Assembly: GCA_016840855.1 (NCBI GenBank) | Contig: JAEORO010000069.1 | Coordinates: 32,001 to 96,000, forward strand | Reading direction: 5' to 3' | DNA: 64,000 nucleotides | From: Candidatus Thorarchaeota archaeon | GTDB taxonomy: Archaea > Asgardarchaeota > Thorarchaeia > Thorarchaeales > Thorarchaeaceae | In this document: positions 16,618-44,936 of the stretch, one piece after another | Layout: every line of letters begins with the position of its first letter | Numbering within the stretch: the stretch's first letter is position 1 | The notes under the pieces: model-generated | Database searches by the model: none | What the model was told of the DNA's origin: nothing | Seen by the model: the letters and a program-made list of their open reading frames with translations, nothing else | Program-made: the position numbers and the translations under genes

Positions 16618-17022
16618 TTATCTGTGTTGCTTAAGATACTCATCAAGCATTGATTTTAATGGATCAAGTTTACTAATGACAAGAAATTCGGTGTCTTCTC
16701 CTATCTCACTCAAAGTTTCATTGAAGGATATTACACTGTGAAAATCTTGGATAAGATTCTCTTTTGCAGCTTTGGTTCGAGCCGATGGGTCATAGACAAC
16801 AATTTTATTTTCTGGCTCAAAATTCACAACTACACTCCTACTGAGGTACATGACCTTCTTACACTTCGGGCATTGGACTCGATTTGCTTTGCCAGCTTTT
16901 AGGGCTTTGATCATATCGCGGTCTTCTGAAAGATCAATATGATCTACTACATTTGCTTCATAGACATTCTTGCATTTAGCGCATTTTATTTCTGCTAAAC
17001 TTGTACTGGCCAAAATTCTCAC
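16618..17022 (-). CDS. CpXC-like zinc-binding protein
   Basis: Two CxxC pairs (CAKC, CPKC) and the G..N...CP.C pattern. Confidence 0.65.
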   Translation of the reverse strand: MRILASTSLAEIKCAKCKNVYEANVVDHIDLSEDRDMIKALKAGKANRVQCPKCKKVMYLSRSVVVNFEPENKIVVYDPSARTKAAKENLIQDFHSVISFNETLSEIGEDTEFLVISKLDPLKSMLDEYLKQHR

Positions 17023-22685: not shown

Positions 22686-24365
22686 GTGATAAGAATGATT
22701 ATAGAATGTCGAATCGATGATCTTCTTTCATTAATAGGAAAGAAACTCACCATGCAAGAGCTAGAAGATACGCTATTTCTGATAAAAGCTGAGGTTGAGA
22801 ATGTAGATGGAAACATCATTGAGATAGAAGTGAATCCAGACCGCCAAGATATGCTATCCACAGAAGGCATAGCTAGGTCAGTTAGGTCATTCTTGAGTAT
22901 TGAAACAGGATTGAAGACATATGCTGTGAAAAAATCAGGGAAACAAGTCATTGTCAAAACAGGACTTGCAAAAATCAGACCCTTCATTTGCTGCTCTATC
23001 ATTAAGGGTGTACCTTCTGATGATGAATTGATAAAGGAATACATGCACCTGCAAGATTCTCTAACATCAACACATGGAAGGAATAGAAGCAAAGCCAGCA
23101 TTGGTCTCTATGTATACGACGAACTTGAATTCCCAGTGATTTATGGATTGCGTGCTCCTGAGATGATCAAGTTCATACCATTAGGTTATGAGAAAGAGAT
23201 GGATGGTCCAACAATTCTGAATCAACATGAGAAAGGAGTTGAATTTGGGCCCATTATTCAGAAACATAAGAAATGGCCATTACTCTATGACTCTAAAAAT
23301 CAAATTTTGAGTCTCCCTCCAGTCATCAACAGCAACCACCTAGGACGAATAACCACAGAAACCAGGAATATATTCGTTGAAGTTACAGGGACACATTTGC
23401 CGACAGTACATCAAGCTCTGAACATCATCACCGCATCCCTTGAAGAAAGAGGGGGTAAAATTGAGTCTGTTACAGTCGTATATCCTGATGGCACTACTGA
23501 TGAAACTCCAGATTTTAAGCCGGATCGAATAAGGATCAACGTGGACGACGTTAATTCGCTTTTAGGTCTCGATTTATCAGAAAGTCAGATTGTCAGAGCA
23601 TTGGAAAGAATGGGTTATGGAGCAAAAACAACGAAAGCAAAACAAATTCAGGTGTTCATCCCCAAGTTCAGAATGGACATTCTTCATCCCGTCGATATAA
23701 TCGAAGACATAGCTATCGGATATGGATATGACCGATTGGAGCCCGCTATGCCCCAAACAATGACTATGGGAAAAATCAATCCGATAACTAGAATCAAAAA
23801 CAAGATTCGAGATTTATTGGTTGGACTTGGCTATCAAGAAGTCATGAACTACATCATGAGTTCTCCTGATTTACTGAATGAAAAAATGAATCGAAATCGG
23901 CCACTGGTAGAAACTGGTAATCCAAAGAGTCGCAACTACTCGGTCCTCAGGAACTCTCTTCTTCCAATTCTCCTTGATTTCATTTCACAGAATCAACATG
24001 CGGATTATCCACAGAAGATCTTCGAGGTTGGAGATGTGACAGTTCCGGATGAGTCAAAGGAAACCCGCGCAAACCAGGTTACGTCGATTTGCGGTGTGAC
24101 GACAGATGTAAAGGTAAACATCACTAGTCTAATGAGCGAGATAGGATTTCTTTTACGTAATCTTGGATTAGACAAACAATTCACGTTCGAATCAGAAAAG
24201 AGCACAGACTTCATTGAAGGTAGGTGCGCAAGCATTAAGATTAATGATGAACCATGGGGATCTTTTGGAGAGATTTCTCCCAGAATACTCTCTAACTTCG
24301 GAATTGGCTATCCAATCGTAGCTTTCGAGATTCACATTCCAAGAAATGCAGATTGGATTACGTAA
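22686..24365 (+). CDS. pheT: Phenylalanine-tRNA ligase beta subunit
   Basis: PDRQDMLSTEGIAR, SLPPVINS, R.DILHPVDIIEDIAIGYG and LR.SLLP motifs. Confidence 0.95.
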   Translation: MIRMIIECRIDDLLSLIGKKLTMQELEDTLFLIKAEVENVDGNIIEIEVNPDRQDMLSTEGIARSVRSFLSIETGLKTYAVKKSGKQVIVKTGLAKIRPFICCSIIKGVPSDDELIKEYMHLQDSLTSTHGRNRSKASIGLYVYDELEFPVIYGLRAPEMIKFIPLGYEKEMDGPTILNQHEKGVEFGPIIQKHKKWPLLYDSKNQILSLPPVINSNHLGRITTETRNIFVEVTGTHLPTVHQALNIITASLEERGGKIESVTVVYPDGTTDETPDFKPDRIRINVDDVNSLLGLDLSESQIVRALERMGYGAKTTKAKQIQVFIPKFRMDILHPVDIIEDIAIGYGYDRLEPAMPQTMTMGKINPITRIKNKIRDLLVGLGYQEVMNYIMSSPDLLNEKMNRNRPLVETGNPKSRNYSVLRNSLLPILLDFISQNQHADYPQKIFEVGDVTVPDESKETRANQVTSICGVTTDVKVNITSLMSEIGFLLRNLGLDKQFTFESEKSTDFIEGRCASIKINDEPWGSFGEISPRILSNFGIGYPIVAFEIHIPRNADWIT

Positions 24366-34115: not shown

Positions 34116-35039
34116 CTAGTCTTTCCTCGGTTTGAACCCTGTGAGTCGAAGTATATTATCTCTAAAAATCAAATCAACATCTTCCTGTTTATAATTAAAT
34201 TTAGGTAACAAAGACTTGACTGCATTGTACTGCTCTTCTAGTATGTTATATCTAAATCCACGAGGAAAGAATGAAGAATCAGTCCCAAAAACAACTCTGC
34301 AAGAAGCCCCTGCTTTCAAGGCACGTTCAAAGATTTTAGTTATTGTTAAGTCCACCTCTTGATAGTTCATCCAGTTGTTGCTACCACTTGTATCCATCAC
34401 AACATTATGAGTCTGATACATGAGCATCAATACCTCGCGGAAAAATCCAGCTCCGAAATGGGCAATCATGAAGTTCAAATCGGGAAAATCAAGTGCAGGC
34501 TTTTGTATATCTAAGGGGTTTCCATAACGAAGGTTAGCCTGAGTCCCTATAGTTATACCAAAATGAAGAATAACCAGTAGTTTTTGCCTAAGAGCTTCCT
34601 CAAAGATTGGGTATACTCGATCATCATACACATGGAAATCCCAAGAGCTGGGGTATAATTTTATTCCTTGAAACTCATCCTTTCCAGCTCGTTTCACGTT
34701 TTCTACTGCGTTTTCATCAGCAGGATTGATATTAGCATACCCTAGAAATCGACCTGGAAACCGTTTTCTAGTCGCATTAAATTCATCCCAGACCTCTTCT
34801 CCAATCATCATACCAATAGCTGTAATTCCATACTTATCTAATTCATCAGCCCACATCTGACCAGCATCCCAAGTTTCATCAGGGATTGTAAGTTTTGGCA
34901 TATCAGTCTGAAAAGCGACTCTATTCTGCATTCGCTCAAGTGAAGCTCCGCTCTCTATCCATCGTTTAATTGTGTTATATGTAAAGAAGTGCGCATGACT
35001 GTCAATCACTTCAGTTCCAATTTTTGATATCACAATCAT
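34116..35039 (-). CDS. Amidohydrolase_2 family metallohydrolase
   Basis: IDSHAH, GIKLYP, HFG, AHFG and FGTDS motifs. Confidence 0.88.
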   Translation of the reverse strand: MIVISKIGTEVIDSHAHFFTYNTIKRWIESGASLERMQNRVAFQTDMPKLTIPDETWDAGQMWADELDKYGITAIGMMIGEEVWDEFNATRKRFPGRFLGYANINPADENAVENVKRAGKDEFQGIKLYPSSWDFHVYDDRVYPIFEEALRQKLLVILHFGITIGTQANLRYGNPLDIQKPALDFPDLNFMIAHFGAGFFREVLMLMYQTHNVVMDTSGSNNWMNYQEVDLTITKIFERALKAGASCRVVFGTDSSFFPRGFRYNILEEQYNAVKSLLPKFNYKQEDVDLIFRDNILRLTGFKPRKD

Positions 35040-41333: not shown

Positions 41334-42842
41334 CTAATCTTCAAGGAGTATTCCTTCAGAGAGCTCCTCTAATCCACCAGCCTCTGGTTCTATCGGAGGC
41401 GATATAGCATCACCATTCGCCCAGGTTTCACCATCCGGTTCAGGAGGATCATGTCTAAAGCCATGGACTATTAACACGACCCCCGTCAAGGATACGAGAC
41501 CGCATGAAGCAAGTGTCAATGGGAATCCAATGATTGTTATCAACCATCCGAATAGAGCTATCTGAGGTATCGCAAACAAGGTTGCAACGGTTGGGAAGAG
41601 AGAGTACATGGAGTTCCTAATTTTATTCGGAATTACATCCAAAAGCACACGTTGTGTAAGGATCTCAGCAAAACCTCCAAAGAAACTGGTTGAAACAAAT
41701 GTTGTGAATATGAGAGCAATTGGAACAATATTCTCTGCAGGGAGACTCAAGAGTTGTATTTGGGTGAAAGGCCAGTAAAGGGTCCAGAGGCTTGTACTTG
41801 TATCAGTTGGTGGGAATAGTAGCATGATAGCAGCAAAAACCCAGAAGAAGACAAATCCACAGGTTTGCATAAGACGAAACCGTGGAATCCACTTCTTTGG
41901 TTCAAACCTGCGGGACCATATACCTGAGCGCTCTTGGGAGAAGATACCAGGAATAAAAAGTAGAGTCCTGAAACTTGCAACACCGACATCTGTGATCAAA
42001 TATAGGTAGTACATCGGAAATAGAATGAGGTTTCCCCAAACCATAATGCTGCTTACAGCTAACATGCTCCCTACTGCGATGTATCGAATAAATGCATGTC
42101 TGAAGAGATAGCTGACGCCACCTTTGAGTATGGAGAGGTATTCACCCATCTCTGGGCGTTGGCCTTTCTGAGCTCTTTGCTCCTCTACTTCAGGAAAGTC
42201 TCGTACGAGTCTGAAGACAAGCATCGCAAACACAAACGATAGGACACCTTGTAGTTGGAAAACCCAAGCTCTTGAGAATGCAGCAGCCATAATACTCCCT
42301 GGAATCAAAGAAGCTGTAGCTACTATCTGCATTACCATGCCCATGCGTCCCCAGAAAACGCCATACTGCTTTCTATCTGAGTCACCGGGCATAGCGATCC
42401 GATAATTATTGTCGAACCATGCACCCCATGCTCCACTGGATTGAGACTGCGCAAGGCCTTGTAGAGCATAAACCAACACAAGATACACGTAAGGAGTATC
42501 AACAGTCACTATGGAAATCATGAGAAATGAGATTCCATAGGTCACATTTGCACCAGCAATGATGTACCTCTGACCAATCCAATCACCAATAGCTCCAGTT
42601 GGATAGTCCAAGATAATTTGGACAACCATCTGAACCACAACCAAAGTCCCTACCAAGCCGATACCTTGGAGATACATTCCAGGACCGCCGCCAAGTGCCT
42701 CAGCAACAAAAATCACATAGAATGTCGTAGATAGGAAGAAAGTGAGATTAGCCAATGGCCCTAAAATTCCCATAATTTGTGCCAGTTTCACGACCTTGTC
42801 TGTGGCGTCCGGCAAACCAAGAAAGGATTTCATTCTACTCAT
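41334..42842 (-). CDS. MFS transporter
   Basis: About 12 TM segments; motif A-like DYPTGAIGDWIGQR; SGA..AWFDNNY; DVIPNKIRNS.YSL. Confidence 0.88.
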   Translation of the reverse strand: MSRMKSFLGLPDATDKVVKLAQIMGILGPLANLTFFLSTTFYVIFVAEALGGGPGMYLQGIGLVGTLVVVQMVVQIILDYPTGAIGDWIGQRYIIAGANVTYGISFLMISIVTVDTPYVYLVLVYALQGLAQSQSSGAWGAWFDNNYRIAMPGDSDRKQYGVFWGRMGMVMQIVATASLIPGSIMAAAFSRAWVFQLQGVLSFVFAMLVFRLVRDFPEVEEQRAQKGQRPEMGEYLSILKGGVSYLFRHAFIRYIAVGSMLAVSSIMVWGNLILFPMYYLYLITDVGVASFRTLLFIPGIFSQERSGIWSRRFEPKKWIPRFRLMQTCGFVFFWVFAAIMLLFPPTDTSTSLWTLYWPFTQIQLLSLPAENIVPIALIFTTFVSTSFFGGFAEILTQRVLLDVIPNKIRNSMYSLFPTVATLFAIPQIALFGWLITIIGFPLTLASCGLVSLTGVVLIVHGFRHDPPEPDGETWANGDAISPPIEPEAGGLEELSEGILLED

Positions 42843-42977: not shown

Positions 42978-43038
42978 TGCAACGACCCTCGGATCACACA
43001 AACGAGGGCCGCTGCAGAATCTCCACCTTAGGAGATTC
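42978..43038 (-). promoter_or_regulatory. Tandem RNA hairpins upstream of the MFS gene
   Basis: Minus strand GAATCTCC-TAAGGT-GGAGATTC immediately followed by TGCAGCGGCCCTCG-N11-CGAGGGTCGTTGCA (14 bp including two G-U pairs). Confidence 0.55.
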
Positions 43039-43087: not shown

Positions 43088-43210
43088 TTATTCTGACACG
43101 CTAAAACCGGCGTTACAAAGTGCTCCAAATGACTGAACACAGATCGTCTTATCCTCACTAGCTAAGCACAGCTTCGCTCTTGAGAGGATACCTGGTTGTG
43201 TCATAGTCAT
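43088..43210 (-). CDS. Putative 40-aa micro-ORF MTMTQPGILSRAKLCLASEDKTICVQSFGALCNAGFSVSE
   Basis: Read by hand; lies directly downstream of the second TATA-CCAAAACTG motif. Confidence 0.3.
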   Translation of the reverse strand: MTMTQPGILSRAKLCLASEDKTICVQSFGALCNAGFSVSE

Positions 43211-43371
43211 CACATCGCCAGTTTTGGTTTATACAACCAACCATATTTTGTTAATGGTTTGGATATAAACATTATTCTTAAAGCATTATTTTGTATCCTG
43301 TACTTAAAATTGCAATTATGTTGATATTTCAAACCAATTTTGTGAATATTAGACAGGACACACATGCGTTT

Positions 43372-43440
43372 CTACCTCCTGAAGAAGGCGGTTGTGATTG
43401 CTTGTGTTGTCATAATCTGTTTCTTGTTTCTGTTTGTCAT
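43372..43440 (-). CDS. Micropeptide P4 (22 aa) MTNRNKKQIMTTQAITTAFFRR
   Basis: GGAGGT SD 6 nt upstream; carries the TQAI..AF motif shared with P1 and P3. Confidence 0.65.
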   Translation of the reverse strand: MTNRNKKQIMTTQAITTAFFRR

Positions 43441-43444
43441 TTCG

Positions 43445-43540
43445 TTACCTCCGATAGGTATATGCATGGATGATAGCCTGAGTTCGACACAGACATCTGT
43501 TTGGTAATTTGGATTTGAGATCGTATTCAGATGAAGCCAT
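43445..43540 (-). CDS. Micropeptide P3 (31 aa) MASSEYDLKSKLPNRCLCRTQAIIHAYTYRR
   Basis: GGAG/GTGA upstream; carries TQAI..AY; start context TGTGAAAAATC-ATGGCT nearly matches P1. Confidence 0.65.
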   Translation of the reverse strand: MASSEYDLKSKLPNRCLCRTQAIIHAYTYRR

Positions 43541-43556
43541 GATTTTTCACACTCCA

Positions 43557-43685
43557 TTATAGGTTGGTCACAAGATATGCTATTTCTGAGACTAACTGAC
43601 CAGTTCTATGACCACTATGTGACCAATCACCTTTCATAGATGGATCGGTAGATATCCAGCAGATTTGTTTCTCAATGTGTTCCAT
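43557..43685 (-). CDS. Micropeptide P2 (42 aa) MEHIEKQICWISTDPSMKGDWSHSGHRTGQLVSEIAYLVTNL
   Basis: AGGTGA SD overlapping the P1 stop; fills the gap between P1 and P3; only a partial motif (AYL). Confidence 0.4.
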   Translation of the reverse strand: MEHIEKQICWISTDPSMKGDWSHSGHRTGQLVSEIAYLVTNL

Positions 43686-43690
43686 GCTCA

Positions 43691-43798
43691 TCACCTTACG
43701 ACAGTCAAGTAGGCATATGTCAGAGCCTGGGTTGTAAAAACAGCACCACTTTTGTTCTTCAGCGCAGATATGTTTCGTGAGTTAGTTGTTAGAGCCAT
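43691..43798 (-). CDS. Micropeptide P1 (35 aa) MALTTNSRNISALKNKSGAVFTTQALTYAYLTVVR
   Basis: TATATATA box about 33 nt upstream; carries the TQAL..AY motif. Confidence 0.65.
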   Translation of the reverse strand: MALTTNSRNISALKNKSGAVFTTQALTYAYLTVVR

Positions 43799-43820: not shown

Positions 43821-43885
43821 TCAGTTTTGGTATATATAGCGGAGCCACGTGAGAGGGTCACGAGAAGGAGTCACAATTTGTGACT
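43821..43885 (-). promoter_or_regulatory. Putative promoter of the micropeptide array: TATA box plus palindromes
   Basis: TATATATA at 43831-43838; CGTGA-N5-TCACG at 43848-43862; AGTCACAA-T-TTGTGACT at 43869-43885. Confidence 0.45.
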
Positions 43886-44054: not shown

Positions 44055-44936
44055 TTGGAGATTAAGAAAATCGCTGTTTTAGGCGCAGGTCTAATGGGAA
44101 ACGGAATTGCTCATGTATGTGCGCAAGCCGGGTATGAGGTCAAGATGCGTGACATAGACCAGAAGTTCATCGACAAGGGATTGTCCACTATCAAGAAGAA
44201 CTTGGAGAGAGGAATTGCGAAAGGAAAAATCACTCAGGACGAAGTTGACACAATTCTCACGAGAATCCATGGAGTCTTAGATCTTGAAGATGCGGTCAAG
44301 GATGCTGATCTTGTTATCGAAGCAGTTCCAGAAATTGTCAGTCTAAAGCTCGACATTTGGAAAGAGGTTGATACATTTGCACCAGAACATGCAATTCTGG
44401 CTTCTAACACATCTAGTATTAGTATCACCCAAATGGCTGCAGTCACAAAAAGACCAGAGAAGTTCATAGGAATGCATTTCTTTAACCCTGTTCCGATCAT
44501 GAATCTTGTAGAGATTATCAAGGGACAAGCCACCAACGATTCAACAGTGCAGATAATTGAGGATGTTTCAAAGAAGATTGGCAAGGAAACAGTACTTGTC
44601 AATGAAGCTCCTGGATTTGCAGTCAATAGACTACTTGTTCCAGCATTGCTTGAGGCTGTATTTGCCATCCAAGAGGGGGTAGCCACCGTTGAAGACATGG
44701 ATAAAGCGATTCATCTTGGGCTGAATTGGCCAATGGGTCCATTAACTCTGCTTGACTTTGTAGGTCTTGATACAACGTTACACATAGCAGATTACTTCTT
44801 TGAAGAGTTTAAGGACAGCAAATATAGGGCACCAACTCTATTGCGAAAAATGGTACGAGCTGGCTGGTTTGGTAGAAAATCAGGCATGGGTTTCTATGAC
44901 TACTCCGGCGAAAAACCCAAACCAAATAGATTCTAA
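44055..44936 (+). CDS. hbd: 3-hydroxybutyryl-CoA dehydrogenase
   Basis: GAGLMG.GIA, EAVPE, SNTSS, GMHFFNP and PMGPL.L.D.VGLD motifs. Confidence 0.93.
   Translation: MEIKKIAVLGAGLMGNGIAHVCAQAGYEVKMRDIDQKFIDKGLSTIKKNLERGIAKGKITQDEVDTILTRIHGVLDLEDAVKDADLVIEAVPEIVSLKLDIWKEVDTFAPEHAILASNTSSISITQMAAVTKRPEKFIGMHFFNPVPIMNLVEIIKGQATNDSTVQIIEDVSKKIGKETVLVNEAPGFAVNRLLVPALLEAVFAIQEGVATVEDMDKAIHLGLNWPMGPLTLLDFVGLDTTLHIADYFFEEFKDSKYRAPTLLRKMVRAGWFGRKSGMGFYDYSGEKPKPNRF

Follow-up and report, generated by a model that had tools for sequence, protein, structure and literature searches.

The 64,000-nt stretch of a Candidatus Thorarchaeota genome analysed here (the window) contains, between a major facilitator superfamily (MFS) transporter gene and a 3-hydroxyacyl-CoA dehydrogenase gene (hbd), a 1.2-kb "intergenic" gap that, judged from comparative sequence evidence, encodes a real, lineage-specific operon module in which one operator-controlled promoter precedes a chain of closely spaced paralogous micro-open reading frames (ORFs). 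A first-pass annotation, made from the letters alone, had described four minus-strand ORFs in this gap, P1 to P4, as an array of paralogous micropeptides. Their coordinates and translations check out, and its core observation is right, P2 excepted: to judge by their conservation, P1, P3, and P4 are certain members of a family of real, translated micropeptide genes that is previously unannotated, lineage-restricted, and equipped with its own regulon. The three members in the window are as follows.

43691..43798, minus strand: P1, 35 aa, founding type of the family (MALTTNSRN...TTQALTYAY...)
43445..43540, minus strand: P3, 31-aa family member (…RTQAIIHAYTYRR)
43372..43440, minus strand: P4, 22-aa short family member (…TTQAITTAFFRR), from an internal ATG of a 61-aa frame

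P1, P3, and P4 are conserved as peptides

The peptides of this family are basic and 22–38 aa long, begin with MAL[TA][TK], and end with [ST]-T-x-A-[ILV]-x-x-A-[YF] plus three to five residues. The pattern TQA[IL]..A[YF] occurs three times in a six-frame translation of the whole 3.36-Mb genome, each time in P1, P3, or P4, where residue frequencies predict about 0.32 occurrences; as the motif was defined from these same three peptides, the comparative data are the stronger evidence. Membership was judged by a profile match, an open frame of 22–44 codons, the motif near the C-terminus, and the cassette context, all of which are found in the window for P1, P3, and P4. The profile scores are E = 2e-16 for P1, 2.9e-10 for P3 (with the P4-type profile), and 1.5e-5 for P4, with profiles that include the window sequences and orthologues 48–77% identical to those. 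Frame breaks in orthologous loci, which the first-pass annotation had named among the observations that would overturn its proposal, are absent from P1 and P3: across 16 orthologous loci of one cassette class (class A; ~70–74% DNA identity), P1 and P3 are intact in 16/16 and P4 in 14/16.

Selection on these frames was assessed from pairwise ratios of nonsynonymous to synonymous differences (pN/pS). At the 16 class-A loci, the in-frame values are 0.59 for P1, 0.52 for P3 (0.99 and 0.90 off frame), and 0.43 for P4; among 59 unique copies of P1 the ratio is 0.57 in frame versus 0.92 and 1.29 in the other two frames, and among 39 copies of the P4-type ORF it is 0.50 versus 1.05 and 1.28. The codons for the T, A, [ILV], and A of the motif show zero diversity at positions 1 and 2 (for [ILV], at position 2 only), with a diversity of 0.46–0.72 at position 3. 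This pattern, together with the frame-specific ratios, bears out the earlier proposal that selection acts on the peptide rather than on the DNA.

The C-terminal motif, which had been taken for the conserved part, is indeed conserved but is not the whole of it, as the N-terminal MAL.. is conserved too. In P4-type ORFs, the first six codons combine a pS of 0.71 with a pN of 0.15 (ratio 0.21), and the ratio is 0.40 over the motif region and 0.76 over the middle. These values indicate that purifying selection acts on the two ends of the peptides, N-terminal MAL[TA][TK] and C-terminal [ST]-T-x-A-[ILV]-x-x-A-[YF]. The middle is relaxed and variable in length. The earlier picture of a family of paralogous micropeptides, each with a conserved core, is supported by the family alignments and by pN/pS, with the middle as the variable part. 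Diversifying selection in the middle was considered and set aside, the ratio there (0.75–0.76) being that of relaxed constraint and not above 1. In P1, the synonymous sites of the first six codons are frozen as well (pS 0.14), which points to an extra nucleotide-level role at this 5′ end beside the start of transcription and translation.

It is highly improbable that the locus holds no peptides at all and that conserved DNA or RNA elements have produced the ORFs as by-products. Such elements do occur here, in the form of a TGGTCA repeat element within P2 and RNA hairpins in the region of two mechanical ORFs, 'P7/P8' (both described below), as well as the P1 first six codons and P5. Nucleotide constraint, however, cannot yield third-position variation with invariant positions 1 and 2, as seen in P1, P3, P4, and the P4-type paralogues, and the frame-specific pN/pS of 0.43–0.59, versus 0.9–1.3 off frame, and the frames, open even at 70% DNA identity and in 15/16 of the genera sampled in the taxonomic family, also speak against it. 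For P1, P3, and P4, a purely non-coding reading is largely refuted by these comparisons.

Distribution within one taxonomic family

The genome from which the window derives has five such loci with 10 profile-positive members: P1, P3, and P4 in the window, two members on each of contigs C10, C256, and C86, and one on C107. At 4/5 of these loci, the unit contains no long gene. At the C86 locus (~34500-34830, minus strand; L183), a different promoter precedes the same order of P1-type ORF, P4-type ORF, third ORF, and hairpin, and at the C107 locus (24141-24233, minus strand; L184) a single family ORF is followed by its own hairpin and T-run.

In every one of the 25 genomes of the genus, counting the window's own, a 700-nt region finds matches with a best E ≤ 7.4e-27, both as full-length copies that are 70–74% identical and as many partial copies, consisting of the promoter and the P1 start, that are 80–90% identical; 16 genomes from outside the genus yielded nothing better than E = 0.00125 with this region. 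The search for relatives across Thorarchaeota that the first-pass annotation had recommended was carried out with a P1 profile of 44 sequences, which finds open frames of 32–44 codons in 81/85 other genomes of the taxonomic family, representing 15/16 genera, at E ≤ 0.01; at E ≤ 0.001, it finds them in 78/85, versus 0/314 genomes from all other families of the phylum. Each genome has ~2–12 profile matches, amounting to hundreds of copies across the taxonomic family. The array in the MFS–hbd gap is therefore real here but is not the one-off that it had seemed, being one of five loci in its genome. At 20 loci in nine other genera, the promoter is followed by P1, a P4-type ORF, and then a third ORF or an MFS gene.

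When 1.84 billion representative proteins were searched with the P1 profile, 28 matched, nearly all of them family peptides of 32–59 aa; none links the family to a larger protein, and no source names them. Pfam and NCBIfam contain no matching family at E ≤ 10 for P1–P6, P8, or one paralogue; PHROGs gave only E ≥ 0.13; the PDB gave nothing at E ≤ 10 in a profile search and nothing with Foldseek, for which the query was a model with a mean predicted local distance difference test (pLDDT) score of 68; the ESM Atlas yielded no usable match; and a degenerate pattern built on the 5′ end of P1 had no match in viral contigs. Full-text literature searches found nothing on such peptides in Thorarchaeota or other Asgard archaea, although a supplementary small-ORF list could exist. 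The earlier impression that this is not a described system thus holds with respect to Pfam, NCBIfam, the PDB, and annotated relatives. By these searches, the peptides form an unannotated family restricted to one family of Thorarchaeota (Asgard archaea).

A polycistronic cassette with tightly spaced junctions

Sixty further loci were fetched, and ORFs were walked behind a conserved anchor (72 anchor hits). Each walk passes through a P1-type ORF (MALTTNSRN…[ST]T.A[ILV]..AY…R) and then through one to three ORFs of 22–38 codons that begin with MAL[AT]K and end with [IV]ST.A[ILV]..AY[FY]RR. Where enough sequence is available, at least two family ORFs are present in 65/69 cassettes (41 with two, 23 with three, and 1 with four), and the next ORF starts between −7 and +9 nt from the family-ORF stop at 136/142 junctions. 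Both counts agree with the polycistronic organization proposed in the first-pass annotation. In 101 of those 136 cases, a Shine-Dalgarno (SD)-like sequence lies in or near the last codons; in the window, the common start context of P1 and P3 and the SD-like ends AGGTGA, CGGAGGT, and AGGAGGT are present in the sequence as noted earlier. The residues behind the motif vary with the type of junction, numbering three, four, or five (FRR in 36 cases, xYRR in ~50, and xTVVR in ~12), and the terminal Arg-Arg is explained by the SD-like sequence of the next ORF in the last codons. The earlier caveat that these arginines may simply reflect that sequence fits this behaviour. All three stop codons are used (64 TAA, 46 TAG, and 32 TGA).

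Three kinds of cargo follow the family ORFs. The MFS type found in the window accounts for ~19–20 of the 72 anchors, with a leader of 530 nt in between. A second MFS type (Pfam MFS_1/MFS_3) follows 19 anchors, and its start lies exactly 5 nt past the family-ORF stop in 16/19, two of the others having an alternative upstream start call and one being an exception. A third micro-ORF of 34–40 codons follows most of the remaining anchors. The association with a downstream MFS gene that had been read from the window holds here and for orthologues, as 19/19 orthologues of the window MFS (≥72% identity) with upstream sequence keep two to four family ORFs, but it does not extend to the family at large: many loci have no transporter. 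Among MFS loci overall, 23/63 have family ORFs upstream, and most paralogues lack them.

In the units with the third micro-ORF (class C), this ORF (…EVLALEAT) ends in a 15-bp hairpin followed by a T-run, with its stop codon in the 3′ arm. In an alignment of the hairpin from the window's own genome (L076:1796-1855, contig C10) with 32 further loci, 84% of cells are paired, versus 25–46% with the partners slid, and three pairs show compensatory change; a Val codon (GTG/GTA) covaries with its partner base (GC 19, AU 8, GU 5). The variable part of the third micro-ORF is without coding signature, and its last nine codons carry one (0.32). A convergent ORF, predicted mechanically, ends 12–42 nt past the stop in 19/32 class-C units, and with this and the hairpin terminator the units look self-contained. 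An attenuator, in which ribosome entry into the hairpin sets read-through, was considered for class C and is weakened by that immediate convergent ORF.

Other sequences were seen near class-C units. A same-strand GNAT acetyltransferase gene of the Acetyltransf_3 type lies downstream of one class-C orthologous locus, ~720–740 nt past the hairpin in L026, L036, L039, L050, L051, and L064; at L089 the GNAT gene is ~740 nt away by its start, a shorter ORF being listed first there. Opposite-strand tRNA-like translations occur just downstream of several units (own genome, C10 ~16,640–16,790 of the slice; L024, L045, L093, L097, and L098); they are unconfirmed, as the aragorn parse gave no tRNA.

Promoter, operator, and regulon

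The cassette promoter in the window comprises the following elements, all upstream of P1.

43870..43884, minus strand: operator-like palindrome GTCACAAATTGTGAC, ahead of the TATA box
43856-43861, minus strand: additional GTGACC half-site
43831..43838, minus strand: TATA box TATATATA of the cassette promoter

The order, shared by the cassettes in general, is the palindrome, the further GTGACC, the TATA box, and TGTGAAATATC immediately before the P1 ATG. The TATA box, which the first-pass annotation had placed before P1, lies ~33–40 nt ahead of this ATG. The stretch that runs from the operator through codon 6 of P1 shows identities of 0.76–0.96 in the 16 class-A loci and of 80–90% in many paralogous copies, and the palindrome is kept in cassettes of nine other genera. 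The pattern GT[CA]AC[AG]N3TGTGAC has only five sites in the window's own genome, and three of these are cassette promoters. The other two, C240:24648 and C196:7580 (both minus strand), belong to operator-plus-TATA promoters without a peptide cassette (loci L182 and L181), which drive genes for a 439-aa bactofilin-domain protein and a 385-aa protein without a Pfam family; the latter has, by eye, a hydrophobic stretch in its N-terminal region. That the same type of promoter also precedes these two genes suggests a small regulon under one putative regulator.

Other elements and flanking genes

The remainder of the gap and its borders contain the following features.

43557..43694, minus strand: P2 ORF, 45 aa from a GTG or 42 aa from the ATG at 43685; coding status doubtful
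43564..43625, minus strand: TGGTCA repeat element inside P2, from an alignment of 29 class-A and class-B loci
43210..43365, minus strand: P5 ORF, 51 aa, conserved in sequence but without a coding signature
43088..43213, minus strand: P6 ORF, 41 aa (…VQSFGALCNAG…), possible divergent family member
43017-43038 and 42979-43015, minus strand: two adjacent, conserved RNA hairpins in the leader, overlapping the mechanical ORFs 'P7/P8'
41334..42842, minus strand: MFS transporter gene, 502 aa (Pfam MFS_1, E 1.8e-19)
44055-44936, plus strand: 3-hydroxyacyl-CoA dehydrogenase gene, the other flank of the gap

P2, which had been counted as a peptide of the array, has no in-frame coding signature: its pN/pS is 0.79 in frame and 1.07 and 0.80 in the other two, and diversity is near equal at the three codon positions. 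Its frame is open in 27/29 loci, and a second frame is open across the element in 10/29, so that some loci read the conserved half in that frame. This half is a nearly invariant nucleotide element with three direct TGGTCA repeats ~11 nt apart, then an inverted TGTGACC. P2 is thus not supported as a conserved peptide, and its conservation lies at the nucleotide level. The repeat element is located in the transcribed region, just before the P3 start region, at 29 loci in two cassette classes, and 0/13 of its predicted pairs show compensatory change across these class-A and class-B loci. Because its half-site is the same as that in the promoter operator, we read the element as a putative array of DNA- or protein-binding sites.

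P5 has ratios of 0.90, 0.69, and 0.77 over a nucleotide block that is 0.68–0.89 identical. P6 shows a coding signature (0.49 versus 0.95 and 1.20), resembles the third ORF of class-B loci, which has the family motif, and has no family-profile match at E ≤ 0.01; it is a possible divergent family member. Across 16 loci, P6 is scored as clean in 8, reduced to a few bases in L008 and L010, and broken by frameshifts in 6; of the 'clean' loci, L007 has just 3 bases left and L002 just 18, which brings the loci that in effect lack the ORF to 4. The 'P7/P8' region is without coding signature (1.09, 0.92, and 1.02) and has low diversity at all codon positions. It is overlapped by the leader hairpins, ~135–195 nt before the MFS start, for which RNAalifold on 13 class-A loci gives 32 pairs, 6 of them compensatory; one entire stem is replaced in two related sequences. 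There is no T-run behind the hairpins at 42979-43038. A search against Rfam gave only three chance-level matches (E 2.6–3.7), far under the gathering scores.

The cassette is co-oriented with the MFS gene, as the first-pass annotation had it, and the MFS start lies ~6 nt past the last leader ORF and ~530 nt past P4. Between P1 and this start, runs of at least five T are absent except for one within P1 (43736-43740, minus strand), which is present in this copy only (V-F-T codons). As oligo-T can serve as an archaeal termination signal, transcription of the window copy might terminate partly inside P1. An internal promoter was considered for a TATAA that lies only ~20 nt before the P3 ATG. A bacterial-type scan of the window found promoter-like sites at the level of shuffled sequence and no terminator-like sites.

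Function of the peptides

We tentatively favour the view that these are trans-acting micropeptides, themselves the functional product. By this account, the peptides would be made in a fixed ratio through termination–reinitiation coupling and would act inside the cell by binding a putative partner through the invariant Thr/Ala/Tyr core, a P1-type/P4-type pair representing the simplest form; in the window, peptides and MFS transporter would be expressed together within one regulon, and the former could act as modulators of the latter. Several observations recommend this view. Both termini are selected at the peptide level, whereas arrest of a C-terminal segment in the ribosome tunnel does not by itself predict a constrained N-terminus. 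Nothing lies downstream to be regulated at 4/5 own-genome loci and in most class-C units. The two subtypes are kept together across genera, and neither the distance from motif to stop nor the stop codon is fixed. The peptides are hydrophilic (median grand average of hydropathy, GRAVY, −0.53) and basic (median net charge +5 to +6). These values do not indicate the hydrophobic transmembrane segment of a type I toxin or membrane micropeptide. The peptides are probably helical, AlphaFold2 (44 sequences) predicting two helices at moderate confidence, with a mean pLDDT of 68 overall and 78–79 over the motif half. The tight coupling, with 136/142 next starts within −7 to +9 nt, is a further point in favour, and PMC10666635 states in its title that such pairs, in bacteria as in archaea, frequently code for subunits of heteromeric complexes. 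A predicted complex of P1 and P3 scored 0.02 versus a mark of 0.32 and was used neither for nor against binding.

Several points weigh against a role in trans. The cassette is always at the 5′ end of its unit, and, as with leader peptides, the SD that serves the following ORF is held in the last codons. At 19 loci an MFS_3-type gene comes right after the family ORF, 16 of them at 5 nt. Conservation shows no significant helical periodicity, the observed value having been matched or exceeded in 837 and 1515 of 5000 permutations, and a conserved helix face, which had been expected, was dropped after this test. Finally, the synonymous constraint on the P1 N-terminal codons means that conservation there is partly at the nucleotide level.

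The main alternative, though a somewhat unlikely one, is that the ORFs encode cis-acting leader peptides, in which case nascent P1- and P4-type chains would slow or arrest the ribosome near the stop, perhaps in response to a small molecule. Arrest would gate the termination–reinitiation relay by which ribosomes pass on to each following ORF and ultimately reach the MFS gene, and the released peptides would have no role. The position of the module, always first behind the promoter, is what this model expects, as are the close spacing at 136/142 junctions, with SD-like sequence in or near the last codons at 101/136, and the transporter start exactly 5 nt past the stop at 16/19 MFS_3-type loci. 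At least three unrelated genes (the two MFS types and the third ORF) are found behind this one module, the C-terminal ~12 residues are the best-conserved part of the peptides, and the cassette is retained by 19/19 window-MFS orthologues with upstream sequence. Precedent supports the model as well: sections of PMC6728339 document termination–reinitiation coupling in archaea, and sections of PMC11890864 document a short nascent peptide that arrests at the stop codon in bacteria. On the other hand, many units have nothing to regulate, as shown by the same 4/5 own-genome loci and by the convergent ORF in 19/32 class-C units, so that a position upstream of, and coupled to, a regulated gene fits the MFS loci but not the stand-alone loci. 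In addition, the three to five residues between motif and stop leave no fixed spacing to a stall codon, the choice of stop codon is free among TAA, TAG, and TGA, selection at the peptide level extends to the N-terminus, and the window MFS starts ~530 nt beyond P4 with structured RNA between. A stronger version of the cis model, in which tandem conserved-peptide upstream ORFs (uORFs) would detect a ligand inside the ribosome tunnel and so control the relay that sets MFS exporter expression, the peptides possibly having a second life in trans, would be the first case of nascent-peptide translational control in archaea. It would give the conserved-peptide uORFs of eukaryotes a prokaryotic analogue in those archaea that are the closest kin of eukaryotes; we consider it unlikely. 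Mechanisms in trans and in cis could coexist.

It is less likely again that the peptides are exported or modified, either as unmodified cationic peptides of an archaeocin- or pheromone-like kind or as precursors of a cofactor or of a ribosomally synthesized and post-translationally modified peptide (RiPP) with a distant maturase, the MFS protein acting in export or immunity. Tandem paralogous genes with a variable middle and conserved ends, present at several loci per genome, would suit such a role, as would the match of the second transporter type to Pfam MFS_3, 'transmembrane secretion effector', and the invariant or nearly invariant Thr and Tyr, which are potential modification sites. The genes next to the cassettes do not. 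The first-pass annotation had noted that no modifying enzyme is adjacent, and among 454 ORFs of at least 100 aa at 87 cassette loci, the ten recurrent neighbour clusters scanned with Pfam include no radical-SAM, YcaO, lanthionine-type, or other known RiPP enzyme and no protease or ABC-exporter gene, although distantly encoded enzymes are possible. These clusters are ATC hydrolase, PolX, a TFIIB-type zinc ribbon, SMC_N, desulfoferrodoxin, GNAT, an ECF (energy-coupling factor) S-component, and three without a family. Moreover, the peptides are hydrophilic, most cassettes lack any transporter, and inspection of the alignments by eye, no predictor having been run, revealed no signal peptide, Cys, or obvious leader/core cleavage site.

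Implications

Small ORFs are routinely overlooked in archaeal annotation, and to our knowledge there is no experimental small-protein census for those Asgard genomes that are known only from metagenomes. The present family offers unusually clean evolutionary proof of translation, has a promoter of its own under operator control, and comes with a defined regulon in which two types of MFS exporter are included. Action in trans would make the peptides a set of coupled micropeptides particular to this lineage; action in cis would make the cassette a leader-peptide relay, a mechanism that we did not find described for archaea in the literature searched. The gap as a whole is a mosaic of micro-genes, operator repeats, and structured RNA, each of which needs a different test.

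Comparison with known systems

In its apparent function, the cassette resembles leader and arrest peptides, micropeptide genes with a shared motif, and archaeal coupled gene pairs, but it is not shown to be a member of any of these. More distant likenesses exist to RiPP and cofactor precursor arrays, such as the prochlorosin-type precursors and PqqA, which are likewise multi-copy small precursor-like genes with a conserved segment containing Thr and Tyr. The cassette differs from them in lacking a maturase among its recurrent neighbours and in having a conserved C-terminal part and a variable middle, the reverse of a conserved leader with a variable core. The small-protein transporter modulators of E. 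coli (MntS, SgrT, AcrZ, and KdpF) are also under 50 aa and are co-regulated with, or encoded beside, a transporter. They show no homology to the family, and most cassettes are not beside a transporter.

Closer in layout are the shared-motif polycistrons, including Drosophila tarsal-less/polished rice, the staphylococcal PSM-alpha operon, and leaderless bacteriocin operons (aureocin A70). These too carry several tandem paralogous ORFs of ~10–35 codons with a shared motif on one transcript, and there the peptides are the functional product. No homology links them to the cassette; the bacterial examples encode hydrophobic or amphipathic peptides with ABC exporters, whereas the cassette peptides are hydrophilic and basic, are joined by coupling through an SD within the upstream ORF, and are confined to one archaeal family.

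Leader and arrest peptides are known from bacteria (TnaC, SecM, and the Erm leaders), fungi (the arginine attenuator peptide), and plants (conserved-peptide uORFs, or CPuORFs). Like these, the cassette has short 5′ ORFs with a conserved C-terminal segment and a stop beside the next ribosome-binding site or start, and transporter cargo is frequent. It departs from them in being archaeal, in having two to four tandem paralogues of 22–38 aa, in conserving the N-terminus as well, in its variable distance from motif to stop and free choice of stop codon, and in the many units without a downstream gene; no sequence relationship was found. A short bacterial arrest peptide, PepNL, is described in part of PMC11890864.

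The junctions themselves correspond to those of archaeal termination–reinitiation pairs as described in portions of PMC6728339 and PMC10666635, with −4 nt overlaps or gaps of a few nucleotides and an SD-like sequence in the upstream ORF. Whereas the pairs covered in those portions consist of ordinary protein genes, the cassette would extend the same arrangement into a relay of up to eight micro-ORFs ahead of a transporter.

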